From positions 1,333,378 to 1,397,377 of the forward strand of contig BDGG01000014.1 of NCBI GenBank assembly GCA_001949185.1: a stretch of DNA of 64,000 nt, in the 5' to 3' direction. Numbering within the stretch: position 1 is the stretch's first letter; each line of letters starts with the position of its first letter. The notes below the pieces were generated by a model, which worked only from the letters and a program-made list of their open reading frames with translations, was not told the DNA's origin and did not search any database. Source of the stretch: Ramazzottius varieornatus (Eukaryota > Animalia > Tardigrada). Position numbers and translations under genes: made by a program. Positions 21,548-62,835 of this stretch are shown one piece after another.

Positions 21548-21816
21548 GAGGATTTACCCAGCCTAATATCGAAAATCATGCAGTTGTCGCCTACGACCTG
21601 CCAAGGAAAGCTGGAACTGGGAGATTGATCATGGGTGCGGAGATTTTTATCTTTACCAGTCAGGAAATCCAGTTCTCGAACAACATTCAAAGCGGCTTTC
21701 AGGATTGAAATCATGTTGATCGATTGATTGCCGGTTGCAAGTTGGGCTGTACTTGATCATGGAGAGCCATTCTGTGACTTCCGTATTTCGCTGGGTAAAT
21801 CACCCGTCCATCGCTG
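21548..21816 (-). mobile_element. Diverged copy of the MITE family at 28405-28696
   Basis: Reverse complement begins CAGCGATGGACGGGTGATTT and shares collinear internal blocks (TCAATCGATCAACATG, GGCAGGTCGTA, TTCGATA..AGGCTGG) with 28405-28696. Confidence 0.7.
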
Positions 21817-22137
21817 GTTACAGACTGACTGTAATGCTTCATGAACTTCACGTAGTACGTCATCATACCCGAACAGTTGAGCCCTGGTCCAAGAATTTCC
21901 TACCAACCCCCTAAGGGATGTTTCGCATGTATAATGACGTACTTCACGAGTTCTCGAAGCATTAAAGTATTCTGTGTAAGTTATTTTGAGAACCTCTTAG
22001 AAGTGAGAATTCCAATTTCCAAGCTGTCCACTGTGTCCAGTCCAGCTGCTGCATTTAGAACGTTTCCATGCTTCTTCGTTTTCTTGTTCCTTTCCCCTCT
22101 GGCTCCGGACGACGCAGGAGCGCGTTGTGTCGAGAGA

Positions 22138-24440: not shown

Positions 24441-25427
24441 ATGATCAGCTTAATGTCGCAAGTGGCTACGGCTATCGATGACTGGTCTTCCAAGACGACG
24501 GGCATCCTCTTTCCCGTCTCGTCCTACCACCGGACCATCCACTACTCCATGGTGGCTGCAGCTGGCTTGACGGCCCTGGCTACCTACCTCGTCCAGCGGA
24601 AAGTGCCCGCTCCCTACGGAAAGTTGCGCAGGAGACAGCTTGGGGTCGATAGCAAGCAGGAGAAAGCTTGGGGTCCAAAGATCATTCCCACCACACTGGG
24701 CCACACCATTTCCGATGGACCAACGGGCACTTTCCTCTTTCTCTACATCTTCCTCAAAGGTACAAGCATGTCCTGCTTAGCTCTCTGTAGACATTAGCTA
24801 ACTTGGATGTCGCTGTTATAATGGACGGACACAGAGGTGGGCGTATGATCGATGGCTTCTGTAGGTGCGCACTATAATTACGCGGCCAACTGGACGCTGG
24901 CCGGTCTCTTCATGTTGCATTTCTTCCAACGCGGCTTCATCCATCCCTTCATCATGAAGTACGGCGACACGCACATCCGGCTGGGAGTGTGGCTGGGTGC
25001 TTGCGGTCCCAACATTCTCTTCCATGTGGCCATTGCCGACTGGGTGGCCAATGCCGTCTATCCTCGTAATCACCTGCAGAAACCCCTGGTCATGGTCGGC
25101 CTGGTACTGTACGCCGTGGGCTTCGTCGTCAACCGCGCGGCGGATTGGCAGCAGGCACAGTGGAAGAAGCAGCTAAGGCAACGCGAAGATTACGCCTACC
25201 CCAAGGGTTGGCTCTTCAATATGGTGGCCAACCCCAACTACTTTGGTGAGTTTGTGGAGTGGACCGGCTATTTGTTGGTGTCCCAAGCTCCCATCTGCCT
25301 CATGTGGTCCCTCTTCACCGCCGCAACCTGGTTTACACGCGCGGGCTTTAATTTGGAATTCTATCGAAAGAAGTTTTCCGATAACTATCCGCGACATCGA
25401 CGAGCCCTTGTACCCTTTGTATACTGA
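24441..25427 (+). CDS. SRD5A1: 3-oxo-5-alpha-steroid 4-dehydrogenase (SRD5A1/2-like), 2 exons
   Basis: APYGK, HFFQRGFIHPF, YAYPKGWLFNMVANPNYFGEFVEWTGY and FYRKKFSDNYPRHRRALVPFVY. Intron about 24760-24864. Confidence 0.85.
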
Positions 25428-26802
25428 CTTGTTCTTGCTGCTACGTTTGCTGTTGGAATGCGCGATCTTTAATGAAAATAGTCTGTGTTTCATCTTGCCG
25501 TCGTCCTGTCATTCTGCATGAGGAAGTGCATTAGGATATCGAAGCCTGCAAACTGCGATCGTGCACAGCTTCTTCATGTTTCGTTTTATTCCTCTTAACA
25601 TTCTCGTTTGACCTGCCATTGTGTTTTAATACTTTTTCTACAGCCCAAGTAAACCGTGGGAACACAAAAGAAGGCCCTCTGTGTTGAAAGTCACAAGGTA
25701 CAACTAAGCATCGGTGGACGAATGTCCGCTACAGTTTCAAACGTCACAGTTAAAATACAGACATTAAGTTGCCACCACCAGATGAAAGTCCCACTGTAGC
25801 TAAGATGACTTGCAACGTCACTCATAAGCGCAGCAGCTGATCAGAACTTTGAATAGTTGGACAGCCACCATGCTTCCCAATGCTAGCCAACCGCAACTCC
25901 GATTACGCTATTTTGCGAAAATAAGGTGAGCTCCGGAAAGCAAAATGTGGTTACACGTCACGAAAGGGGCGGAGCAAGGCCGTAGCTACAGTTGCATAGT
26001 GAACGGGAGTGGCAACTTAATCTCTATAATGTTGCACCTGCATGGTGGTTAGAGTCCTGCACTAAGCTCTTCAGATCGGCACTCGAAAGGAACTGGTTGC
26101 TTGCCATGTTTATCGGAAGGTCCAACGTGATGCCGCTGGTGCGCGATCTCGTGCTTCCCATTTTTCCAGCACTTAATTCGCATTAGTATTTTACAAATAC
26201 TGGCAGTAACGAATTGTCTGCAGGCTGGCATGGATGTAACGGTAGAAAACATGGAATGGTTCCACAAACAGTATTGCGGAGGGCAAAATTTGGCAGGCCC
26301 ATACAAATGACTCTGGCGGTACATCCATGCCAGCAAGGAATTCTCAGAAAATGAAGCTGGATACTTAGTTATCTTGATGATACGACCGCTGATGTCACTG
26401 ATGGAACTCCTATCCCTCTGACGATTCTGAACTTTTGAATTCTGATCGATGCAACAGTACGGTGGGTGCACAGTGTACAGTGTACACTGTACAGTCAGTA
26501 AAGCAGGCAAAGCAAACGTAGGAAACTCTGGGCGGTATTTGGTGCAGGGAACAAAAGGACCTTAGAATGTTGGCACATCGCTGATTGCTTTTGTTCCGAT
26601 TATACTTTGTATGATTGGTCAGGAGTTCTAAGAGCAGGTCCTTGAATCCCTATGGCGAAGAATGGTCAGTCTTGTGTATAAAAGTTGCTGCAAGAGATGG
26701 GTAGTTTCCACAGTCAAGGTTTTTCTGGCGTAGCGCACCCTCATCCTCTTTTTTATTTCCTCCTGTTTTTCCCGTCTTGATTTTCCGACAGGAAGCATCG
26801 CC

Positions 26803-28075
26803 ATGAAGGTTCTGATGTTCACGCTGGGCTGTCTAGCTCTCAGCGTCAATATGGCCAGTGCGTGCCAAGGCCACGGTAAGTGCTCTGCAGCATTCCCTGC
26901 TGATTAAGGAACTGTGCATCTTGTCTTCTAGCAAAGCTGTGGATCCAACCTTTGATCCAACCTTCCCTTTGCAGATTCGACCTGCCGTGGCGACAACGGT
27001 GCGCAAGGTGACTGCTGTGCAGGGATGTACTGCCAGAAGAACGATCCATCTTGGGCCGAAGGTCAGTTTCCCCGCATTTTCCACTTGTTGTCTTCCTCTT
27101 TGGAATTATAGACCCGATGGAAAGTGTCGTATTGTCCTTGCAGGCCGTTGTTTCTACAATCCTGGCCGCAAACGTCGAGAAGCCCTGTTGGAGGATGAAG
27201 ACACGCCCGCCTCGATCAGCAGCACTTCCTCCTTGCCCAGGTCCAGCTGTGACTCCAGCCTCGGACTCCTCTGCCTTCCCGATGCTTGTCAGAAGAAGAC
27301 GTGCACTCTGATGCCGCAAGCCATCTGCCTCGCTGACCGATGCGGATGTGAAGCTCGCTTCTTCAAGTGGAACCCACAGGAAAAGGCCTACCAGGACTAC
27401 AGTCGTCTGTGCCACATTGCTGAACACTTGACCAGTAGGTTACCCTTCATCTACTGTACTTCCTGGTCCACAGACTTTCCACACACAAAGTTGCTCAGTG
27501 CTGATCTTCTGCTCTTTATATCCTTGTAGAGGTCGAACGGTTCGCCAACGAGTCTAAGCAGAACGATGAAGCTACGGGAGTCACCGCGGGAGCGACGACG
27601 CCGCCCAACAACGCTGCCAACGTGGGGCTTCTGCGGAGCTGGAACCGTCTGATTGTGGAGGTACTGCTGGACCTGGGCCGATACCTGCAAGATGTCGTCA
27701 AGACCGATCCCTCGCAGAAGAACATTGACAAGCTGCGCCTGGTCTTCGAGACTGTCGAAAAGCTTCGAGCGTCCAGCCCTTCCGGTGCAGTCAGCGATGA
27801 AGGTATCCCCTCGGAGCGTGCTTGGAGGAGAGCGGTCAAGACTGGCAGCCGCCTGATAAACACAGCTATCCAAAAGCTCCTGGACGAGGACGGCCAGTTT
27901 GCCGACGAGATTGCCAGCGGTAAGTCGTCATTTCCTACCGTTTAGTTTTGAACAGGGTATGAAGTATGGTGGTAATTTGTTTTCCTCCGGTACAGGTAAG
28001 GTGGCTATTTCCGACAAGAACGTGCGAGAGCAGCTCCTCCTGACGAGACGTTTTTGTTTGCTTGTCTGCTGGTAA
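26803..28075 (+). CDS. Uncharacterised secreted precursor (~306 aa): signal peptide, ICK/knottin peptide, G-RKRR, 8-Cys module, helical region, probable C-terminal RR|FCLLVCW
   Basis: Exons 26803-26875, 26975-27061, 27144-27434, 27530-27919 and 27996-28075, all GT-AG and all phase 1, give one open frame. Last exon less certain. Confidence 0.8.
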
Positions 28076-28404
28076 TACGCTATCGTGCTTGCTCTGATTG
28101 TCGAATCTGTTTCACAGGTTAAGTTTTTTGCCGGTTTTTAAATAGCAGATCTTATCTCGTTTGAGCTTATCCTGCCTTATCAGTAGGACGAATAGAACTG
28201 TTGTTCTCTCCCCCCCCCCGCGTTTTGACATAAAGTCGAAGAGTGTTCCTCTGCGGAAGGTATCCAGGTCTGTGGTGACTGGCTCGTGTAAGTGCAGTTC
28301 AGGTGGATGAAGTTCGAAGAATGGCTAGAGGAGCGGAAGCGATCGAGTTTGAGAATTGTTTCCGCCGAACTTCCGGCTCCCTCTGTTGGACTTGGACACC
28401 GCAC

Positions 28405-28696
28405 CAGCGTTGGACGGGCGATTTTCGCAGCGAATTAACCGGAATTACCGAACACACAGAACGGCCTCGCAACATCCCAACCCAGGAACGCAAGTCAATC
28501 AATCAAAATGTTTTTCGTCTTTGAAAACCGCTGCAATCGTTATTCGAACACTGGTTTAGCAGTTGATAAAGGCAGAATTTGTGCACTGATGATAAATTCC
28601 CCATGGCATCCAGATCTAGGCAGGTCGTATGTCACAGCTGCGTAAAATTCGATACCAGGCTGGAAATTCATTGCGAAAATCACCCGTCCAACGCTG
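28405..28696. mobile_element. 292-bp MITE with ~32-bp TIRs
   Basis: CAGCGTTGGACGGGCGATTTTCGCAGCGAATT versus reverse complement of the right end CAGCGTTGGACGGGTGATTTTCGCAATGAATT (29/32 identical). Second copy at 21548-21816. Confidence 0.8.
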
Positions 28697-28936
28697 TACG
28701 GTTGTACCGCACTTGGTCAGAATTCACAATTATAATTTCCTAACAAAGTGTTATCGCAGGCTTCGAAGCTGAATATACCACTCCCAAGTATCTAGATCTT
28801 TCGTCTCACCGGAGTGTCCGGTGTCGAGAAGCTGAACCTAGAGAATACCAGTCGGAACCGGGGGACAAGCTTACGTCCGGATCAGCCTCCCGTCTGAATG
28901 CACAGTGGAATGAGTGGATGATACTTACCGGAAGCG

Positions 28937-30282
28937 ATGGATCAGCCGTTCGACTTTTCCAGCTTTGGAGACGATGGACACGGTGCTCGCACTGGAACAT
29001 CCACCACTTTCGCCTCGCACTCAACGGCGGAACAAGGGGCCTACCCTTACCACGAGACGAGCGCTGGAGACAATGACTGGCAGCTGCTCAATCTGTCAAC
29101 TTCCAGTCCTGCTCACCACTATAGCCACACCTTGTACAGTCACGCCGCTGAAGAACAAATGCCCGACTACTACCAAAACCTTTTGACGGATGGAATCACG
29201 GGTCAGGAAGCAACAGTGGAGCAGCTGATAGAAGGAAACGAAGAGGAGGGCGAAGCTGCGGTCGAGGAGAAACCCATGGCTGAATTTGCTTCACAAAGAT
29301 TCAAGCGTAAGCCCAGAAAGAAGAAGGTGGACGATTCTAGAAGCGAGAAGAAGCGGCAGAAGCGCAAGGTGCAGGATGATACCGAGGAGAGTCAGAACGC
29401 CAACGAGGTAGTTAGTTTAATAACCGCCTGAGCCACCGCCATCGAGTCGCGCACCAGGTTTTTTTGGATCAAGTGACGCATTTTCGTACTTGTTTATCAG
29501 TGATACGGTGCGCAGGTTTGATGAAGACTTGGTGTGTTTGTGGCTTACTTGTGATAATCCTGATGTTACTGTAGGAGGCTGAACAGTCAGCTGCGGTCGA
29601 TGCGTTAATAGCTGACGAAGGAGGTGGGGAAGAGTTAGCAGCTGTCGAGGAGGAAGAAGAGCTGGACGAAAGTGAGCAAGCCGCCGCCGATGACTTTTAC
29701 AGCCAACTGCTAGACTGGCCGGCCACTGTGCCACTCAACGACGACGCCGTGCTGGCGCAGTCTGGTCAAAGCATGGCGGCGCGAGGACTGAAACGGGTTC
29801 GCTGGCATATGGAGGAGATTGCCTTCTTCCAACGCTGTGCCTCCTTGTTCAACTGTAACTTCAACATGATCCAGGATTTGCTTCCTCATCGGACCCTGGC
29901 TGAGCTGAAGAAGCAGTATGATAAGCAACGGCTGCTGTATCCTTCGCTGTACGGCTCCTTCTCCACTTCGCCGCGCTTTCATACGGTGGAAGAGTACTAC
30001 CAACTGCTGGACGATCTGCAGAAGGAAAAGGAGGACCTGGAGAACAGGATGATAGAGCTGGGCGTCAAGCCCTGGTCTCTCTTCAACGCTCAACCAAAAG
30101 TCACAGAGGACCAAGCACCACAAAGTATCGCTGCCGGTGTACATGCCGAAGTCGAAGATGAAGAGGATTCCAACGCTCTCTACACATTAGGATCAAGACC
30201 CAGGGTAAAATGCAACACCAATTCAACTTTTACGATACGCATAGATGATAGGTTCGTCAAGCATAATTATGATAATAATTAA
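28937..30282 (+). CDS. Small SANT/Myb-domain protein, Bdp1 (TFIIIB B'')-like; 3' end uncertain
   Basis: Exons 28937-29407, 29575-29671 and 29714 onward. VRWHMEEIAFFQRCASLFNCNFNMIQDLLPHRTLAELKKQYDKQ resembles the Bdp1 SANT pattern (W..EET..F......GTDF.MI..LFP.R...EIK.KFK.E). Basic NLS-like KRKPRKKK and acidic stretches. Confidence 0.6.
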
Positions 30283-30323: not shown

Positions 30324-30345
30324 TACTGTAGTTATTACTGATTCA

Positions 30346-30894
30346 CAAGGGATTTACGCCAGTCGGTCCACTCCAACTTTAAAGCAATAAGATGGAAAAA
30401 TAGAAAAGGGTTCACTCCATAAAACAGAGCAGACGGTATCGGCGAAACTAATTCCTGGACGCCATTGCGAAATTTGGAAACAGGAACTATTGTGCTGCGA
30501 TGACGTAATACTCTTGATTGAGACTTTTTCATTGACAATGAGGTGAACAGCTGATTGGATTTGACGTCGTTGCCGCTCCAAATTGCGCACCATGAGGTAC
30601 TACAGCTACGAGACAGCAAGTTGTCTGGCGAATCATACACACTCTTCGCCGATCAACTGATCGCCTCCTTGTCAATCAGGAATCAAATCAAAGTGCATTT
30701 ACGTCAAAGCGGTTTGGTTACGTCATTGGGACGGAGCCGTACGGCCATTGTATCCCTGTTCCCGAATTTTGTAGTGGCGTCCAGGAATTATTTCCGCCGA
30801 TGCTGCCTGCCTCTGTTTGTACAGTGAACTCTCATCTACATATATCGCGAATTGGTTTCAGAGTTGGTGTGGACCGACTGGCGTAAATCCCTTG
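30346..30894. mobile_element. 549-bp MITE, PIF/Harbinger-like (3-bp TCA target-site duplication)
   Basis: Near-perfect TIR CAAGGGATTTACGCCAGTCGGTCCAC(T/A)CCAACT at both ends. Direct repeat TCA at 30343-30345 and 30895-30897. Confidence 0.85.
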
Positions 30895-31568
30895 TCAGAA
30901 TGGAGATGGATCTTTCGGTGTTGACCGCCGGTACTGAGCGGGTACTCAATGTTGCGTCTATTCGGCAGGTTTTTTAGTGGAGATGCAGTCGTTCGAGTGC
31001 GACGATGTGCAGAGGCCGATACAGGGCTAAAACGGCTGTTGCGCATAACTGCGAAAGCGCAGAAGCTGTATCGTTCCTAAAACTTTGTTGTTGGGTTCAC
31101 TTTAATAGTATAAATACTGGGCAGTAGTAACAGTGCTTTTGCTGTTCTTTCGCATTCCGATCATCATGTGCCACAATGCTAGCTGTTCACTTCAGCTCGG
31201 TAACATAAACTCGATAAAGTCGATACCCGTATAAGTCGCCGGAAGTGGCCCTTCGCCGCTTAACGAACTTTCTCGGACTAGACGGCGATGCTTTACCCAA
31301 CTGGTATCGAGCTTCTCCGCAGCAAGAGTTCAACTTTTTGGCCCGAAACAATCTCATTTCCAGTTTTCTGGTTATTTATGTCTAGTCAGAGACTCAGAGC
31401 TGTGGCATAGTAAACATAAAAGATCAACAAGGTAACTGTTACTGTCGAGAGGGTTGGGAAAACAGCGAGCTCAGCTATTCCTCAGAGTAGTTACAAAAAG
31501 AACAGAGTGAAATATCAAAAAAGCGGACTTATGAAATGTCATTATCGACTAGTTAGAAGCCAAAAAGC

Positions 31569-34702: not shown

Positions 34703-37100
34703 ATGGGGAATCATCTTGTAGTGGAAGCGGCAGCAGCGCCAGCCAGTTCAGCGACGATGGCTGGTGCGGGTTTGATGGCACCTCCGCCGGTTGCCGATCT
34801 TCCCTCCAAGCATATTTCGTCATCACCCCTTTCAAGCAGCAATAGGCTGGGAATACTGGCCAATATTCCTGGCAGTCGCCTCTTACTCACCAATCCTGGG
34901 TCTTTCGAGGATATTCACAAAAGAGCCAAAGGTAAGTGAGCTGCTGAAAGCACACAGGCTGATGGACAGCCGCTTTACCAGTACGCCATCGGTGACGACA
35001 TCGCTTTTTGCACTTCGCTGATGACCATACGGCGGATTTCATTGGCTCTTATTACGTCATGCGCGACTTGATCCGATCAAATCAATACGTGAATCTGCAG
35101 CAATCACCGCTGTAATACTTTGTGCGCTGGATGTTCGATGTTCTGCGTGTTGCAGATGTGTTTCCCGTGAATTTCGAAGGCTTCCGGTTTGTGTTGAACA
35201 AGCCGCTGAGTAACCATTTCCAAGTGAGCCACACGGTGAATGTGGGAATGATGCAGAATGGATACCGCTTTGGAGCGACCTATATCGGCCACAAAATGCT
35301 CTCCCCTTCCGAGGTACGGTGCCTTTCTTTTCTGTGAACTTGCAGTTTTAACTGGTTTTATTTCTAACCATATGTGGCTTTATTGTAGGCTTATCCCGTT
35401 ATACTAGGCGAGATCGAACCGAATGGAAACCTTAACGCACAGCTAATTCACATGTTCGGAAAGTCGCTCCGTTCGCGGCTCATTGCTCAGGTACCTGGCA
35501 GCACGGATATAGTAGAGAGGTTGATACGGAACTCGAGCAGCGTAAGAAATCCGAGTAGCGTAAGACTTTGGCCCCTCCCATTCGTTACTCTAATCGGCTG
35601 AGGTTGAGACCCGCTACGCGGTCCAACCGATTAGCGTAACTTCTCCGGAAGGTTTTGCTAAACTTCCATCAAATTTCGTAATTAATGACTTTTTGGTAAG
35701 ATGCGATGTCAAATCACGCGTAGTTTCCAGTTCTGATACAGCAACGGAAAAAGTGATTTCCAGTTCCGACTGCTTAAAGCTCAAGTGAATCTTGATACAA
35801 AAAGCAGCAGTTAAAGGCAAAGTAGATTCCAGGACGTGGCAAAAGCCAGATTTAGAGACACAGTTCTTATTTTGGCAAAAGTCACAGTTGAAGTTGCAGT
35901 CCCATCGAATTTTCGAAAGCCACAGTTACACCCACAGACAAACTGAGATTTTCGTTGTTTTCTAGGTTGACAAAGTCGCAGTCAAGCGTGCAGTCGTTGC
36001 TACAGTTTGACGAATAATTAATAACCGACGTTAAACCCTGAAAGATGCAGTTAGAGGGGCAGTTGGCACCTCCGTGGGACGTCTTGAAAGCAAATCTGAG
36101 GTTTTGAAAAACTTTTAGGAGGAAATACCCACAGAAAGCTTAGTTGGAACGTTTCTCGGATTTCTAACGCACTCGAGTAACGGCCCATATGCCTTACTCG
36201 GGAATTAAGCACCGAGCACATTAGTGAATTCAGTCGGTTCGGCTCCGCCCACGTGCTCTCTTTCATCCGGCTCATTCCTACGCTAATCCGATCTCTTGCT
36301 CTGCTCGAGTGCCGTATCAACCTCTGGAGTATATCATTGGAAAGTTGTGAGTAGGGTACATATTAGGCACATTCGTTATGTAGTATGACGAAGGGAAACT
36401 GGCGGGGATGCAGCTGACGAACGACTACCGCGGTCCAGACTTCACTGGTTCGCTGACGTTGGGCCAGCTGGACATTGTCCGCAATTCCGGCATTGTTGTC
36501 GGCCAGTATCTCCAGTCACTGACCAAAGGCTTAGCGCTCGGTGCAGAGCTGATGTATCAAAAAGGCCAACAGATACCCGGTGGACAAATCTCCATTCTAA
36601 CCGTCGGCGGAAAATACACCGGTAAGAGAGGTCTAACTGACTAAGCCACTCTCTCGCCAATGATATTCTTCGTTTATATTTTCGTAGGCTCCGACTTTCA
36701 AGCAGCAGCATCTTTAGGCATGTCAGGACTGCATGTCTCGTACTATCAGCGATGTAGTGAGCAGTTGCAAGTCGGTGTCGATATGGACACTAGTTTACGG
36801 AGCGGTGAAAGTGTCGGCAGCGTCGCTTACTCCATCGACATACCCAAAGCTAACGTTACCTTTAAAGGTACAGCACCTTGCTCTTTCTCCATGCTTGTCG
36901 CGCCTTTCTTTCGTATCGAATTTTCTGGTCAGTGACGAGCACGTTATGTCGTTTCAGGTTCGATAGACAGCAACCTTTCGGTGGGAGCCGTATTGGAGCG
37001 GCGTTTGTTTCCTTTGCCGGCTTCCTTAGCGCTTAGTGCCATGCTGAATCACAAGAAGACGGCCAGCCAGTTTGGTATTGGTTTGATGATCGGCAGTTAG
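34703..37100 (+). CDS. TOMM40: Mitochondrial import channel Tom40
   Basis: NPGSFEDIHKRAK, DVFPVNFEGFRFVLNKPLSNHFQVSH, GYRFGATYIG, YLQSLTKGLALGAELMY and C-terminal FGIGLMIGS. Confidence 0.95.
35506..36335. mobile_element. ~830-bp non-autonomous DNA transposon inside a TOMM40 intron
   Basis: ~50-bp TIRs AGAGGTTGATACGGAACTCGAGCAGCGTAAGAAATCCGAGTAGCGTA versus AGAGGTTGATACGGCACTCGAGCAGAGCAAGAGATCGGATTAGCGTA, with TATA flanks and internal CAGTT-rich repeats. Confidence 0.82.
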
Positions 37101-47976: not shown

Positions 47977-50900
47977 TTTTACTGCTGCTGCTGCTGGACG
48001 ATGGCTGGCTGACTGAGCGGAAGTGGCATGTGCTGGTGACTGCTGTGGAGGTGGATGACGGTGCTTGGCGCTCGACGGAGAACGCCGCTTCTAACGATGA
48101 AGTAGGCAAGAAGCCGCTACACTACACAGGCACTGAAAGGCAAGAAGCGGTGGAATATCAACGCTACGATGGATGGTACAATAATTTAGCTCATCCCCAA
48201 TGGGGCTCTGTCGGTAAGGCCTTTACTTATAGCCTTTAATTTCCATCAAGTCGAAGAGGTGCTGTACTGTTATATATGATGTTTTGTAGATTCGCATATT
48301 ATCCGCAAAGCCGAGCCGTCCTACACGGACGGTGTGTACATGACCGAGTCGTCTTCGACGACCAATAAGCCCAGCCCGCGTTTGCTCAGTCAAAAGTTTA
48401 TGCGAGGCCGCGATGGCATGCCATCAGCCCGTAACCGCAGCACCCTGCTGCCCTTCTTTGGTGAGTTCCTGGCCTTTGATATTCTGCAGGGGACGGAGAA
48501 TGCCTGTCCCATTGAAATCTTAAAGATTGCCATCGAGCAGTGCGACAGCACCTTTGACCGCCACTGTCTGGGCCGGCAGAGTATGCCGCTGCTGCGTACC
48601 CGCTATGACCGTAGCAGCGGCCAAAGTCCCAACAAGCCCCGTGCCCAGCTCAATCTGATGAGCAGCTGGATCGACGGCAGCACCGTCTACTCCACCAAGG
48701 ATGTCTGGCTGTCGGCCATGCGCTCCTACAACAATGGCACCCTCAAGGTCGAGGCGGCCACCAACCTGCCGCCCTTCAACACCATTGGCGCACCCATCTC
48801 CAACCCCCCACCCAGCCATATCAACAAGGTCCTCGATCCTGCCCGCCTCTTCCGTAAGTTACTCCATCTCCCTTGTCCTCCCCCAGCACTGAGCCTCACT
48901 TCTTTTCTCTTACAGTGCTGGGCGATGGTCGCTCCAACCAGCATCCGCCCATTCTGGCCATCAGTATCCTCTTTTACCGTCTACACAACGTCATGGCTGC
49001 CCGTATTCAAGCCCAGCATCCGCAGTGGCGCGACGAGCAAATCTTTCAGCGAGCTCGACGCTGGGTCATTGCCATCATGCAGAATATCGCACTGTACGAG
49101 TACTTGCCGGCCTTCTTGGATATCCAAGTTGCACCATACAACGGTAAGGAGCAAGCCCGGCCTAACAAAGCTTGACGCAGTGGCCACGTTAAATGTTCAT
49201 TTGCAGGTTACCAAGCCGATATCCACCCGGGTATCTCGGACGTCTTCCAGGCTGCCGCCTTCCGTTTCGGCCACACGCAGATCCCCGCTGGCATCTTTGT
49301 CCGTGATACACAGTGCCACTTTAAGAGGACCGACGAAGGCTACCCGGCTTTCCGCTTGTGCAACACGTGGTTCGACTCGCAAGCCACACTGCAGAAGGTG
49401 GGCGGTATAGAGCCCATCATTATGGGCTTGGCCTCGCAGATTGCCGAGAAGGAAGACGCCATCATCATTGACGACCTGCGCGGTAATGGCCCACTTATGA
49501 TCGCTGGTTACAATTGGCAATAGAGGCTAATTATTTTGTAGAGCACATCTTTGGGCCGATGGAGTACTCTCGTCGTGACTTGGCCGCCGTCAACGTGATG
49601 CGAGGCCGCGATTACGGCCTGCCCGACTACAACAAAGCCCGTAAAGCCTACAAGTTGCGCGCCATCGACAAGTGGAGTGACATTAACCCCGAGTTGTACA
49701 ATGAGAAGCCGGAGATGTTTGAGGAGCTGCGGCAGCTGTACCAGGACCAGCTGGACACTATTGACTTGTACGTCGGGGGCATGCTCGAGTGTGACGGCAA
49801 CAAGCCGGGCCCCCTCTTTACCGAAATTATCCGCGAGCAGTTTCTGCGCTTGCGCGACGCCGACCGCTTCTGGTTCGAGAACCGCGACAATGGCTTCTTT
49901 AACGAGCAAGAGATTGCCAGCATTAAGGCTACAACGCTGCACGATGTCATCGTGGCTGCCTCGGACATTCCCGCCTCGGCCATCCAGAAGAATGTCTTCT
50001 TCTGGCGCGCCGGTACGTACACATCCCTTCCCTCTTCTCTCTGACATTTCCCACTTGCCTCCTTGGTCATTTCTCTTGTTATCCTTGACAGGAGATCCAT
50101 GTGGACAGCCGTTCCAGCTGACAGGCAGCATGCTGGAACCCTGTGTCTCTTTGGGCGCTGTCAGCCGCGATGTTTTTGCCGGCAACGAAGTCCTGTTCCT
50201 TTTGACATGCTTCATCCTTTTCTGCATCATCCCGGCCTGTACGTGCAGTAGATCAAAAAGGCCCTTTTCTTGTCGTAGAATAATTATCCGTCATTATTTA
50301 CAGTGGCCTGCTTGTCGGCCTATCTGCTGGTCAAGTACCGTGGCCACAAGCGCCGCAAGTATATTAAGCATCATGCCGATCAGCTGTATTGGTCAGCTAA
50401 CAATGCGCCGCCGCTGCCGCCGAAAAATGAGCAGTTGAAGGCAAAGAATAGCAGCAGCAATTTGCCTCACTCCGATCAGATGACGCACAACCACGAATAT
50501 AACCCCAAATACAGGTATAATGATGGTTGTAGACTATGGAAGTGAGTAGCATCTTGAGTGATGGCGCCTGCTCTATCATAGTGTGGGTAACCTCGCTGTC
50601 AAGGGGCTGGAGAAAGGCAGCTGGGAAAAAGTCCTGGCTACCGAATGGCTTCACCGCTATCAGAGTCGACCGGTCAAGTTGAAGTTTGGCAGCGACGGGC
50701 AGATTCACGTCGAGAACCGCAAGGGCGATCGTCTACGGACCATCAAGACCAGGTCGGTCAATGCCATGATGCTGGAAGTGACGGAAGATGCCTCTCAAGA
50801 ACCGCTGGCGCTGCTGCGCATCCACAAGGAGCACGACTTGGTCCTCGCCTTTGATAACATTGCCTCCTGTAGCAAGTTCCGTAACCTTCTCAAGCACTTC

Positions 50901-53900
50901 CTGGAGGCCCAAGACAAGGACTTGGTGGTGTCGCCCACTTCTCACGAGCATATATACACTACAGCCGAAACCAAGGAGAAGCGCCAAAGTCGGCTGGAAC
51001 GCTTCTTCAAGATTGCCTATGCCAGAGTAAGCACCTCATATCATTAAGCTTGGCTTCCTCAACCTGCATACCGGGCGCAGCTTAGTCCACGCCCAGCCCC
51101 TGGTATGCAGGTTCTCGATCCGTTACATGATAGTCATCAACTGTTGTTGTCGGCTTGGTTGTGCATGTGTTGGCTGTGCCATAGGCTTTTGGCTTGGACC
51201 GGCGAGAACGGTCAGAGGAAGAACTACGAGACTGCGAGGAAGCCATGCAGCTGAAGCTGACACGGCTGGACTTTGCCGAAGCACTAGCCATGAAGCCCAA
51301 TTGCGCCTTTATCCAGAAGATGTTCAACTGCATCGACAAGGACGGCGACGGCAAGATCTCTTTCCAGCAGTTCTTGGACCTTATTATCCGCTTCTCGTCA
51401 GGTAATGCCCAAGACCGGCTGCGAGTCTTTTTTGACATGTGCGACGTCGACGGCACCGGCCTCATTGAGCATACGCAACTCTTCCATCTCCTACGGTAGG
51501 CAACGCATGCCTCATAATTATGTCAACGCTACATGTTGGCAATAAATATTGATTGCAGGAGTCTACTGGATATGACGGCATCGCAAAAGGGGACAGCCAG
51601 CATGGATGCCGTCAACGTCTGGAAGATTTTTGAAGATCTGGGCTTGAAAGGCAAGAAGCGTCTGTCCTTTGAGGACTTTCTGTCCATCTTTATGGACCAT
51701 TCGCAAGACTTGTCCCGAATGGGCTTGGACTTCAAAGGTAAAGCTCCCCCTTCCCCGTTGACTTATCAAGTGTCTCAACAGGTAGCTTTTATCTGAACTT
51801 TGGCAGGAGTGCGTCAGACCTTCCTGGAGCCAGAGTGTCAAAGCGAACGCTTACCAGGTGGCGTGGAGGGAGAGACGTCAGAGGGCGCTAGCGGCTGGGC
51901 AGCTGCTTTCCACCGCAAACGGCTGTACTGCCTGACCTTGCTGGAGGAGAACAAGCAGCAAGCCTTTTATCTGGGCTTGTACTTTGTGGCCGTCCTTGGC
52001 GTCTGGCTGGAGCGATTCAGCTGTAAGTTGGCTGTACTGTACTAATAAATGGGAAAAGAAGGGGAATGAAAGAGAGTGCTGTGCTCTTGGATAGTTTACA
52101 TGTTCTTGAACGAGACCAACAACTTGCGACAAGTGATGGGCGTCGGCATCGCCATCACGCGCGGCTCAGCTGCTGCCATGAGCTTGTCCTTTGCCATCCT
52201 GCTGCTGACCGTCTCCCGCAACGTCATCACGCGTTTACGGGAGACCTTCCTCTACCACTACATTCCCTTCGATTCGGCGCTGGCCTTGCACAAGATTGTG
52301 GCCATGACGGGCGCCTTCTTCGCCTTGGTTCACAGCGTTGGCCATGTCATCAACTTTTACCACGTCTCCACCCAGCCCATCACCCATCTGAAATGCCTCT
52401 TCAAAGAGATGTCCTTCCCGCCCACACCACCCTCCTTCGCCTTCTGGGTCTACAAGACCCTGACCGGTAAGTGCCTCTTCCCCATTCCGACCTCTGCACT
52501 ACCAAAGCAGTCTTTGTATGATTGCAGGGCTGACCGGTGTCCTATTGGTCATTGTCCTCTGCGTCATGTTTGTCTTTGCCTTGTGGCCGCGCATCCATCA
52601 GCACGCCTACCGCTACTTTTGGCTCACCCATCGTTACGGTTACATCCTCTTTTACATCCTCTGCATTCTCCATGGCTTGCCGCGTCTCACTGGGGTAAAG
52701 TCGATCACCCCCTTCCTTTCTTCTAGCGGCGAGCATTATTCGACGTAACAAGGAGTTATCTTTGCAGGAAGCCCGTTTCCCGCTGTACTTGATCGTGCCC
52801 TTGATTGTCTTCATTATCGACCGCCTAATGGGCATCAAGCAAACGGCGCTGGAACTGGAAGTTATCGAGGCCGAATGTCTGCCTTCTGGTATGCCATATT
52901 CTTACTCCGCCAGTCCATGTTAATAAAGAAAAGAGTAATGTGTCACCTTGTGCTCTGTATAGATGTCATCCATTTGAAGTTTGCCCGTCCGGCGGACTTT
53001 GAGTATCGATCGGGGCAGTGGATCCGGCTGTACTGCACCAGCTTCTGCCAGCACGAGTCTCATCCCTTCACGCTGACCTCCATGCCGCACGACGGCTACC
53101 TCAGTGTCCATGTCAAGGCCCAAGGTATCTGGACCTGGAAGTTGCGCCAAGCCTTTGAAGGGCTGGAGCAGCATCAGCTGCCCGTCCAGCAGCAACTGCA
53201 GCCCAAGCTGCGCATCGAAGGTCCCTTTGGTGGCGGCAACCAGGACTGGTACAAGTACGACGTGGTAGTCATGGTGGGGGCCGGCATGGGTGTGACGCCT
53301 TATGCCTCCATCCTCAAAGACCTGGTATGTATGTCCCTCTATCAACTGCAAGAAGCACGTGGCCTTGCATCTCCTTTATATAGGTCTTTGGTACTTCCAC
53401 CAATCGATTCTCGGGTTTCAACTGCAAGAAGGTCTACTTTGTCTGGATATGTCCTTCGCACAAACCCTTCGAATGGTTCGTCGATACCCTCCATGACATT
53501 GAGAAGCGCGACGTCACCAAAGTGCTGGAGATGCACATCTTTGTCACCCAATTCTTCCACAAGTTCGACTTGCGCACCACCATGCTGGTATGTCACGCCT
53601 TGCTTTTTTTCTTTATTGTTATAGCCGCAGCTGGCTGGGGGATTATCATGTTTTTTTTCTTGCTTCTTAGTATGTTTGTGAGAACCACTTTCAGCGCTTG
53701 TCGAAGAAGAGTCTTTTCACCGGCTTGAAGGCCATCAATCATTTCGGTCGTCCCGACATGCCGGCCTTCCTCCAGTTCGTCAAACAGCGCCACTCTCATG
53801 TAAGAAGAAGGCTTTGGCCTATAGTCAATATGAGGCATTGTTTTGGTCATAAAGCCAATGGGGCGGAAATCATTGCTCTTCTCTCCACTGTATAGGTGTC

Positions 53901-62529: not shown

Positions 62530-62835
62530 TCTCTGGCCGGAAACCAACCCGGAAGTCGACGCGGAAACGATCATTACTCCACTTTTTTAATACAAAGTAT
62601 CCATCAAAAAATAGTTTTAGCATTCTCTCGCTGTGCTCTATCGAATGATCAGAAAAAACAGATCTCGGACCCCAAACTTTCTTGCGATCTGGGGGTCCGA
62701 GATGTGTTTTCTTTGACCATTCGATGGAGCACAGCGAGAAGATGATAAAAATATTTTTTGATGGATACTTTGTATTGAAAAAATGGAGTAATGATCGTTT
62801 CCGCGCCGACTTCCGGGTTGGTTTCCGGCCGGAGA
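62530..62835. mobile_element. ~300-bp foldback/palindromic element between convergent FMNL and PAK
   Basis: Arms of ~145 bp (62530-62673 and 62691-62835) are near reverse complements along their whole length, separated by a ~17-nt loop. Confidence 0.85.

Follow-up and report, generated by a model that had tools for sequence, protein, structure and literature searches.

A knottin fused to a second, cysteine-rich family in a predicted secreted polyprotein of the tardigrade Ramazzottius varieornatus

RvY_17070 (product GAV07199.1) of Ramazzottius varieornatus is a real, spliced and expressed gene in which two protein families that are otherwise found apart, an N-terminal knottin and a second family with an eight-Cys module and a helical hairpin, are fused. 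The gene is located in a window of 64,000 nucleotides (contig BDGG01000014.1, positions 1,333,378 to 1,397,377 of the forward strand), and all positions given below are those of this window. With modest confidence we read the product, annotated as a hypothetical, uncharacterised protein, as a secreted host-defence polyprotein that is predicted to give an amidated knottin and a cationic helical peptide; this is preferred over a feeding secretion, an uncut structural protein and a signalling or channel-directed toxin, in that order of confidence. No paper on RvY_17070, its families or tardigrade knottins was found among the matches listed from the open-access literature. According to passages of a 2020 survey (PMC7056985), tardigrades are without the canonical Toll-pathway repertoire, and the question of novel tardigrade antimicrobial peptides was raised there. 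RvY_17070 and its family provide concrete, cheaply synthesised antimicrobial candidates with predicted masses, and gene editing and expression vectors already work in this species (parts of PMC11175437 and PMC9945988). Two uncurated families are also defined, namely the knottin, a possible new chitin-binding module, and a precursor of pro-domain and cassette with an unusual C-terminal cleavage signal.

The features of the gene are listed in Table 1. The spliced sequence of 921 nt encodes 306 residues and a stop over five exons without internal stops, and all four introns are GT..AG and of phase 1. Seven distinct public runs out of the 24 listed, none of which is recorded as RNA, were compared, and RNA contigs carrying all four exon joints were present in six of the seven (four of four runs in the first set, then three of four in the second, in which one run was repeated and one was without any match). 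Precisely these four introns were skipped, with no intron cover in the contigs, and no single contig from the seven runs spanned the whole CDS. The five-exon, all-phase-1 splicing read from the sequence in the earlier note is thus borne out, and its junctions are confirmed by the contigs. The 5' end at 26710 was marked in two of four runs by a loose sequence that we take to be the template-switch adapter, no upstream ATG occurs in the sequence 26710-26802, and the poly(A) tail at 28248 was seen in one of four runs. Every compared residue of the product is the same as in GAV07199.1, the four junction residues being excluded. The predicted N-terminal signal peptide, also proposed earlier, is supported by a hydropathy peak of 2.48, an A-x-A site and a helix modelled at residues 2-15.

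Table 1. Features of RvY_17070 and their positions in the window
Feature	Position	Strand	Basis or remark
TATA-like box TATAAAA	26677-26683	+	sequence; some 30 nt before the 5' end
5' UTR	26710-26802	+	contigs start at 26710-26712 in 4/4 runs; adapter loose end in 2; ATG absent
Coding exon 1	26803-26875	+	predicted signal peptide and first knottin residues; RNA contigs, sequence, model
Predicted signal peptide, residues 1-20	26803-26862	+	within exon 1
Knottin, residues 21-60	26863-27163	+	over exons 1-3; net -2; predicted amidated mass 4336.6 Da, three disulfides
Intron 1, 99 nt, phase 1	26876-26974	+	interrupts knottin; joint in RNA contigs
Exon 2, knottin core	26975-27061	+	RNA contigs; PDB matches 6/6 cystine-knot peptides
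Intron 2, 82 nt, phase 1	27062-27143	+	joint in RNA contigs
Exon 3	27144-27434	+	RNA contigs, sequence
Predicted Gly amide donor and RKRR convertase site, residues 61-65	27164-27178	+	sequence; stand-alone relatives share Gly-basic end
Acidic Ser-rich linker, residues 66-88	27179-27247	+	low model confidence
Eight-Cys module, residues 89-143	27248-27412	+	each Cys retained by 15-21 of 21 relatives; distant likeness to P0051 repeats
Conserved helical part, residues 144-232	27413-27774	+	helices 140-166, 178-209, 213-232; holds intron 3
Intron 3, 95 nt, phase 1	27435-27529	+	joint in RNA contigs
Exon 4	27530-27919	+	RNA contigs, sequence
Glu-Arg processing-type motif, residues 244-247	27808-27819	+	meets the spider PQM definition (as in part of PMC8290080)
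Putative cationic amphipathic cassette, residues 248-268	27820-27882	+	net charge +5, mass 2394.4 Da, hydrophobic moment 0.66; proposed as a linear antimicrobial peptide
Acidic spacer with the spacer motif conserved in the family, residues 269-291	27883-28027	+	holds intron 4
Intron 4, 76 nt, phase 1	27920-27995	+	joint in RNA contigs
Exon 5	27996-28075	+	ends with stop; RNA contigs, sequence
RR, C-x3-C tail and stop	28046-28075	+	sequence; release as peptide doubtful
3' UTR to poly(A) site	28076-28248	+	CATAAA at 28229; poly(A) tail in contigs

Several other features of the window were recorded. The gene is flanked by a steroid 5-alpha-reductase-like ORF (24849-25427; PF02544) and by a gene with a Myb-like domain (28922-30282; PF15963, below cut-off), and the ORFs at 48280-53624, about 20 kb downstream, presumably belong to a dual oxidase gene. 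A MITE-like inverted repeat of about 306 bp with arms 88% identical lies at 62530-62835, smaller inverted repeats lie at 30345-30895 and 35506-36335, and the stretch 28403-28663 is a dispersed inverted copy of 21558-21818 (67%).

A phmmer search over 1.84 billion representatives returned 52 matches, which together with the query fell into 28 proteins with the knottin motif only, 20 with the Cys-module motif only, four with neither and the query alone with both (RvY_17084 was not counted with both motifs, as its record starts inside the knottin). The knottin profile and the second-family profile did not match each other, and at the Pfam cut-off no family ran through either module in the window protein or in 50 relatives. 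The earlier note did not recognise the architecture, and in Pfam no curated family was matched by the window protein. Word-indexed searches found 2, 0 and 3 proteins. Two candidates were rejected, a disintegrin (Pfam E 0.011-0.065, below cut-off) and a CDKN3 match to exon 3 (E 0.12, taken as chance).

The Cys spacing of the N-terminal module is C-6-C-9-CC-4-C-11-C (6-9-0-4-11) and recurs in 25 of 26 complete cores, the remaining core differing in loop 2. Its identification as a knottin in the earlier note stands, since all six PDB sequence matches of exon 2 are cystine-knot peptides, including Hi1a (E 0.007), psalmotoxin and Xt3a. With the whole protein as query the sole PDB match was Alo-3 (E 0.26), and a profile of 12 knottin sequences placed Alo-3 best (E 0.008) and spider toxins at E 0.25 or worse. 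The region was modelled from a 22-row alignment at pLDDT 92-96, with strands 27-29, 42-45 and 53-58 as a small beta-sheet with a C5-C6 hairpin. Foldseek gave no structural match with E < 0.001, all being weak, tachystatin B (probability 0.80, TM 0.62 over the target) and tachystatin A (probability 0.35) among them; by likeness of fold, the disulfides may be connected C1-C4, C2-C5 and C3-C6.

Six Cys, Asp25, Trp51 and Gly54 are invariant in all 31 equal-length cores (44 extracted), aromatic positions with Tyr/His and with Tyr/Phe are conserved in addition to the invariant Trp, and 22 cores of the family out of 26 are neutral or acidic in net charge. The seven nearest relatives by core sequence (26-30 of 38 residues identical) are stand-alone peptides, and the module is found in tandem repeats in a Thrips palmi protein; two of ten knottin proteins looked up carried an organism name. 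Close relatives were also found at nine metagenome loci (L002-L010) on low-GC eukaryotic contigs (32-35%, L006 40%), one of which, L007, holds two knottin copies. Two further loci, L012 and L013, were rejected as bacterial chance matches, and one 15-residue match in a scan of prokaryote genomes was likewise taken as chance. None of 13 pattern matches was confirmed in viral contigs, none of 100 stretches in a scan with the whole protein, and the viral fold library gave no match with E < 0.001. In the ESM Atlas, exon 2 matched CBM_1 at 0.79, which is a lead only, and the whole protein gave no usable match. Judged by its sequences, the knottin is a widespread, strongly conserved and uncurated family.

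Two of the 28 knottin-only matches are fusions with glycoside hydrolases: the knottin is N-terminal to a GH19 domain in RvY_16177 (P0038) of the same species and C-terminal to a GH18 domain in P0045. RvY_16177 is chitinase-like, with the knottin in place of a hevein domain, and its best PDB matches are plant and bacterial GH19 chitinases. Chitin-binding modules normally sit at such ends of GH19 and GH18 chitinases, and the fusions therefore point to chitin binding, which we predict as the probable activity of the knottin. Its conserved positions and its mostly neutral or acidic charge fit a module that binds polysaccharides better than a cationic peptide acting on membranes or a toxin under rapid evolution. 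The likeness to spider and cone-snail toxins drawn in the earlier note is restricted to the knottin core; the conservation of the core and its fusions with chitinases favour a role in binding or defence over one as a neurotoxin. GH19 also includes endolysins (part of PMC8547705), so the ligand could be peptidoglycan.

All seven closest knottin relatives stop at Gly-Lys or Gly-Lys-Lys, and a candidate last exon ending in Gly-Arg-stop is present at six of the nine metagenome loci; owing to these shared endings, the Gly-basic signal is regarded as a family trait and not as chance. Since the closest relatives are stand-alone peptides ending in this manner, amidation is supported, and the amidation and convertase signal of the earlier note holds as a predicted motif. 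The features of a prohormone type (signal peptide, Gly plus polybasic site, Gly-basic end kept in relatives) are present, and with the RKRR site and the family motifs they support, as a prediction, the secreted multi-product precursor suggested before. Two other suggestions were corrected or are poorly supported. The position of the knottin immediately behind the signal peptide, taken as an oddity, is the usual one in this knottin family, and Alo precursors are likewise short (parts of PMC10051947); the true oddity is the fusion of the knottin to the second family. The seven-residue C-terminal disulfide peptide is poorly supported, as the RR and C-x3-C tail is shared among relatives only with the near-identical paralogue RvY_17084 and falls within a helix in the model; we doubt that it is released as a peptide.

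In the second family, Cys 97-143 are kept in 18-21 of 21 relatives and Cys 89 in 15, so that the eight-Cys module, first noticed in the single sequence, proves to be conserved. Members share the signal peptide, the Cys module and the helical hairpin and diverge downstream. Twelve members were looked up, and the seven with an organism name are all from eutardigrades (Ramazzottius, Hypsibius and Paramacrobiotus); the family appears to be undescribed and has so far been named only in tardigrades. Its profile found nothing under E 0.18 among PDB sequences. The automatic UniRef name of EB-domain protein found no support in Pfam, where the EB model did not match the window protein at E 10 or any of 50 relatives. 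A further protein, P0051, has ten Cys-rich repeats distantly like the eight-Cys module, a likeness which hints that the module derived from a wider uncurated repeat family.

The region of about 130 residues described as helical in the earlier note is indeed helical, but a cationic cassette at residues 248-268, the likeliest second product, had been overlooked in it. Its hydrophobic moment exceeds that of 99.9% of shuffles (p 0.001), and its flanks are net -2 and -5. In the divergent part of some members there are one to three amphipathic cassettes of 15-30 residues, in which Gly, Lys, Leu, Val, Ile and Ala are abundant; Glu-(x)-Arg/Lys stands before each cassette and Asp-Glu after it. A fixed rule applied to 23 family proteins (5,517 residues) picked out 14 cassettes, spread over 8 of them, and one cassette lies in a conserved helix and is probably false. 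Shuffles gave 0.12 expected cassettes and a maximum of 2, with 0 of 500 reaching 14, in a test that is partly circular because the rule was drawn from the same proteins. The rule found no cassette in 159 other window ORFs (many of them non-coding frames, hence a weak control), none in 30 other phmmer matches and none in 15 of the 23 family proteins, the Hypsibius member included and several being fragments. Cassettes vary in number and place, P0040 having one before and one inside the Cys module, and that of RvY_17084 has a net charge of 0 and a predicted mass of 2239.2 Da. Two or three cassettes are found in P0010, P0011, P0016, P0040/P0058 and P0003, some followed by two-Cys peptides, and P0003 has a long Gly/Ser/His-rich insert. 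These proteins would be better candidates for multi-peptide precursors than RvY_17070; the richest arrays (P0010, P0011 and P0040) are records without an organism name.

A first model of RvY_17070 from a 2-row alignment had a pLDDT of 42, and its fold matches barely covered the Cys module and the knottin. In both models the helix of the cassette is part of a bundle of four helices, for which the fold matches are generic (Z at most 10.5). The cassette may therefore be structural, and its modelled position would fit masking by a pro-domain or a plain structural role alike. A predicted complex of pro-domain and cassette scored 0.02 (alignment not used). No basic residue follows the cassette to account for its proposed C-terminal cut.

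Paralogues are known through protein records and RNA contigs, and no second gene copy lies within the window. RvY_17084 is on the same scaffold and the opposite strand about 45 kb downstream, beyond the window, as judged from neighbour-gene coordinates in part of the PMC11654893 supplement. It is identical to RvY_17070 at residues 42-143 and 176-220 and has diverged at residues 144-175 (20/32 alike), 221-247 (9/27), 248-268 (14/21) and 291-306 (9/16), and its variant stretches were found in RNA contigs. Because the contigs are unbranched from 26710 to 27434, we infer that its record is probably a truncated model. A single contig of run X7 matched both exon 2 and the Cys module at 80% likeness, and additional contigs matched only exon 2; this one run thus suggests that there is a third copy of the fusion and that more knottin genes exist. 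In a midpoint-rooted FastTree phylogeny of 21 second-family regions, the gene pair groups with P0003 and RvY_16545 (support 0.97); RvY_16545 carries a signal peptide of its own but lacks the knottin, and the fusion is therefore probably lineage-specific. In the Ramazzottius lineage, a stand-alone knottin gene ending in Gly-Arg-Lys was probably joined before a cassette-family gene, and the fused gene was then duplicated. RvY_17084 has a base mean of 17,717 in a cDNA library from unchallenged active adults, above all eight listed neighbour genes and 20 of the 23 first rows, and no RvY_17070 row was among the matches listed in that table (parts of PMC11654893). These counts passed through E. coli and do not show the site of expression; they give a biased hint of strong, constitutive expression of RvY_17084.

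In the mechanism that we favour, signal peptidase would cut after residue 20, and a furin or prohormone convertase would cut at RKRR, after which a carboxypeptidase would trim the end and PAM would amidate Pro60. Convertase cleavage, carboxypeptidase trimming and PAM amidation form an established pathway. A trypsin-like protease would then cut after Glu-Arg 247 and another protease before Asp269, freeing the cassette. The eight-Cys module and helical hairpin would act as a conserved pro-domain and, with the acidic spacers, would mask the cassette until its release. The 40-residue amidated knottin would probably bind chitin-type cell walls, and the 21-residue cationic helical peptide would likely damage microbial membranes. 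We infer all of these processing steps; what is observed is the transcript, the fusion of two families, and motifs that recur among relatives. Against the defence reading stand the net acidic knottin, the small number of glycoside hydrolase fusions (2 of 28), the packing of the cassette helix in both models, the neutral cassette of RvY_17084, the lack of cassettes in 15 of 23 family proteins and the weakness of all structural matches.

The same processing could serve feeding instead, with peptides from the salivary glands or gut that would attach to algae or microbes taken as food and lyse them, in the manner of a spider venom cocktail in which a knottin is paired with a cytolytic peptide. The layout is like that of spider linear-peptide precursors, and the PQM is present at residues 244-247 and, among 14 cassettes listed by hand (the rule matches with one dropped and one added), before eight; RvY_17084 is also abundant in unchallenged active adults (the library of PMC11654893, in part). 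We regard this as unlikely, since the nearest characterised knottins, Alo-3 and the tachystatins, are immune peptides and counts obtained via E. coli say nothing of the expression site. Less probable again is release of the knottin alone, with residues 89-306 remaining as one folded secreted protein in a structural, carrier, egg or cuticle role and the cassette as an ordinary bundle helix. The models that place helices 246-267 and 287-305 in the bundle, the full-looking P0021, P0034 and P0035, which end soon after the hairpin and are cassette-free, and the missing basic site after the cassette all agree with this, but the helix of the cassette shows little conservation, is present in up to three copies, shifts its position among relatives and always lies between Glu-Arg/Lys and Asp-Glu, and the matches to the bundle are generic ones (Z no higher than 10.5). 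A precursor of neuroendocrine type or directed at ion channels, its knottin resembling an agatoxin-like neuropeptide or a spider toxin, is improbable, for in spite of the amidation and convertase site and the exon 2 matches to Hi1a, psalmotoxin and Xt3a, the family profile ranks Alo-3 before the toxins, the knottin loops are highly conserved, the module occurs in fusions with chitinase domains and in tandem repeats, and the window protein reaches no toxin Pfam cut-off.

The preferred reading as a defence polyprotein can tentatively be extended, with less confidence than the reading itself. Eutardigrades may possess an unrecognised family of antimicrobial polyproteins with swappable cassettes, convergent with spider precursors and cathelicidins, the cassettes being cut at Glu-Arg/Lys and before Asp-Glu from a conserved disulfide-rich helical pro-domain; in Ramazzottius a knottin that binds chitin may have been joined on, and a single transcript would then deliver a wall-binding and a membrane-lytic peptide together.

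RvY_17070 would work like the Alo and tachystatin knottins and like spider linear-peptide or cathelicidin-type precursors, but it lacks defining features of each. Among known systems, Alo-3, psacotheasin and collembolan Alo share with the window knottin the six-Cys spacing, G-x-CC, P-x-W-x-x-G-x-C and a place near the signal peptide. They differ in the motif C-6-C-(7-9)-CC-3-C-10-C (parts of PMC10051947), as against 4 and 11 in 25 of 26 cores here, and in that the window knottin sits in a 306-residue precursor; the Pfam antifungal-peptide model did not match the window protein or 50 relatives at E 0.1. Charge differs as well, Alo-3 being +5 and psacotheasin +2 in passages of PMC11685209 and the window knottin net -2. 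Tachystatins, the antifungal knottins of horseshoe crabs, bind chitin (PMC11685209, in part) and are alike in the weak fold match to B and A, but there is no Pfam cut-off match, and binding by the window knottin is predicted from the chitinase fusions only. In comparison with GH19 (class I/IV) and arthropod GH18 chitinases, the knottin stands where the binding module would be in RvY_16177 and P0045, whereas the window protein is without a catalytic domain.

The linear-peptide precursors of spiders (cupiennin, latarcin and lycosin) also combine cationic amphipathic peptides, anionic linkers and a PQM, a quadruplet that precedes the peptide and has Arg at -1 and Glu at one of positions -2 to -4 (parts of PMC8290080 and PMC7889660). 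They have a short acidic propeptide, whereas the window protein has a folded eight-Cys and helical pro-domain. Further differences are that the inverted PQM (Arg then Glu) is absent here, with Asp-Glu directly after the cassette, that Lys stands at -1 in 5 of 14 cassettes, that no sequence homology was seen, and that an N-terminal knottin is in the same chain. Cathelicidin and BRICHOS precursors combine a conserved folded pro-domain with a variable C-terminal peptide. The window protein shows no cathelin or BRICHOS Pfam match and a different Cys pattern; the pro-domain logic is alike. The gene and its families are undescribed, and they relate to known multi-peptide precursors of defence or venom.
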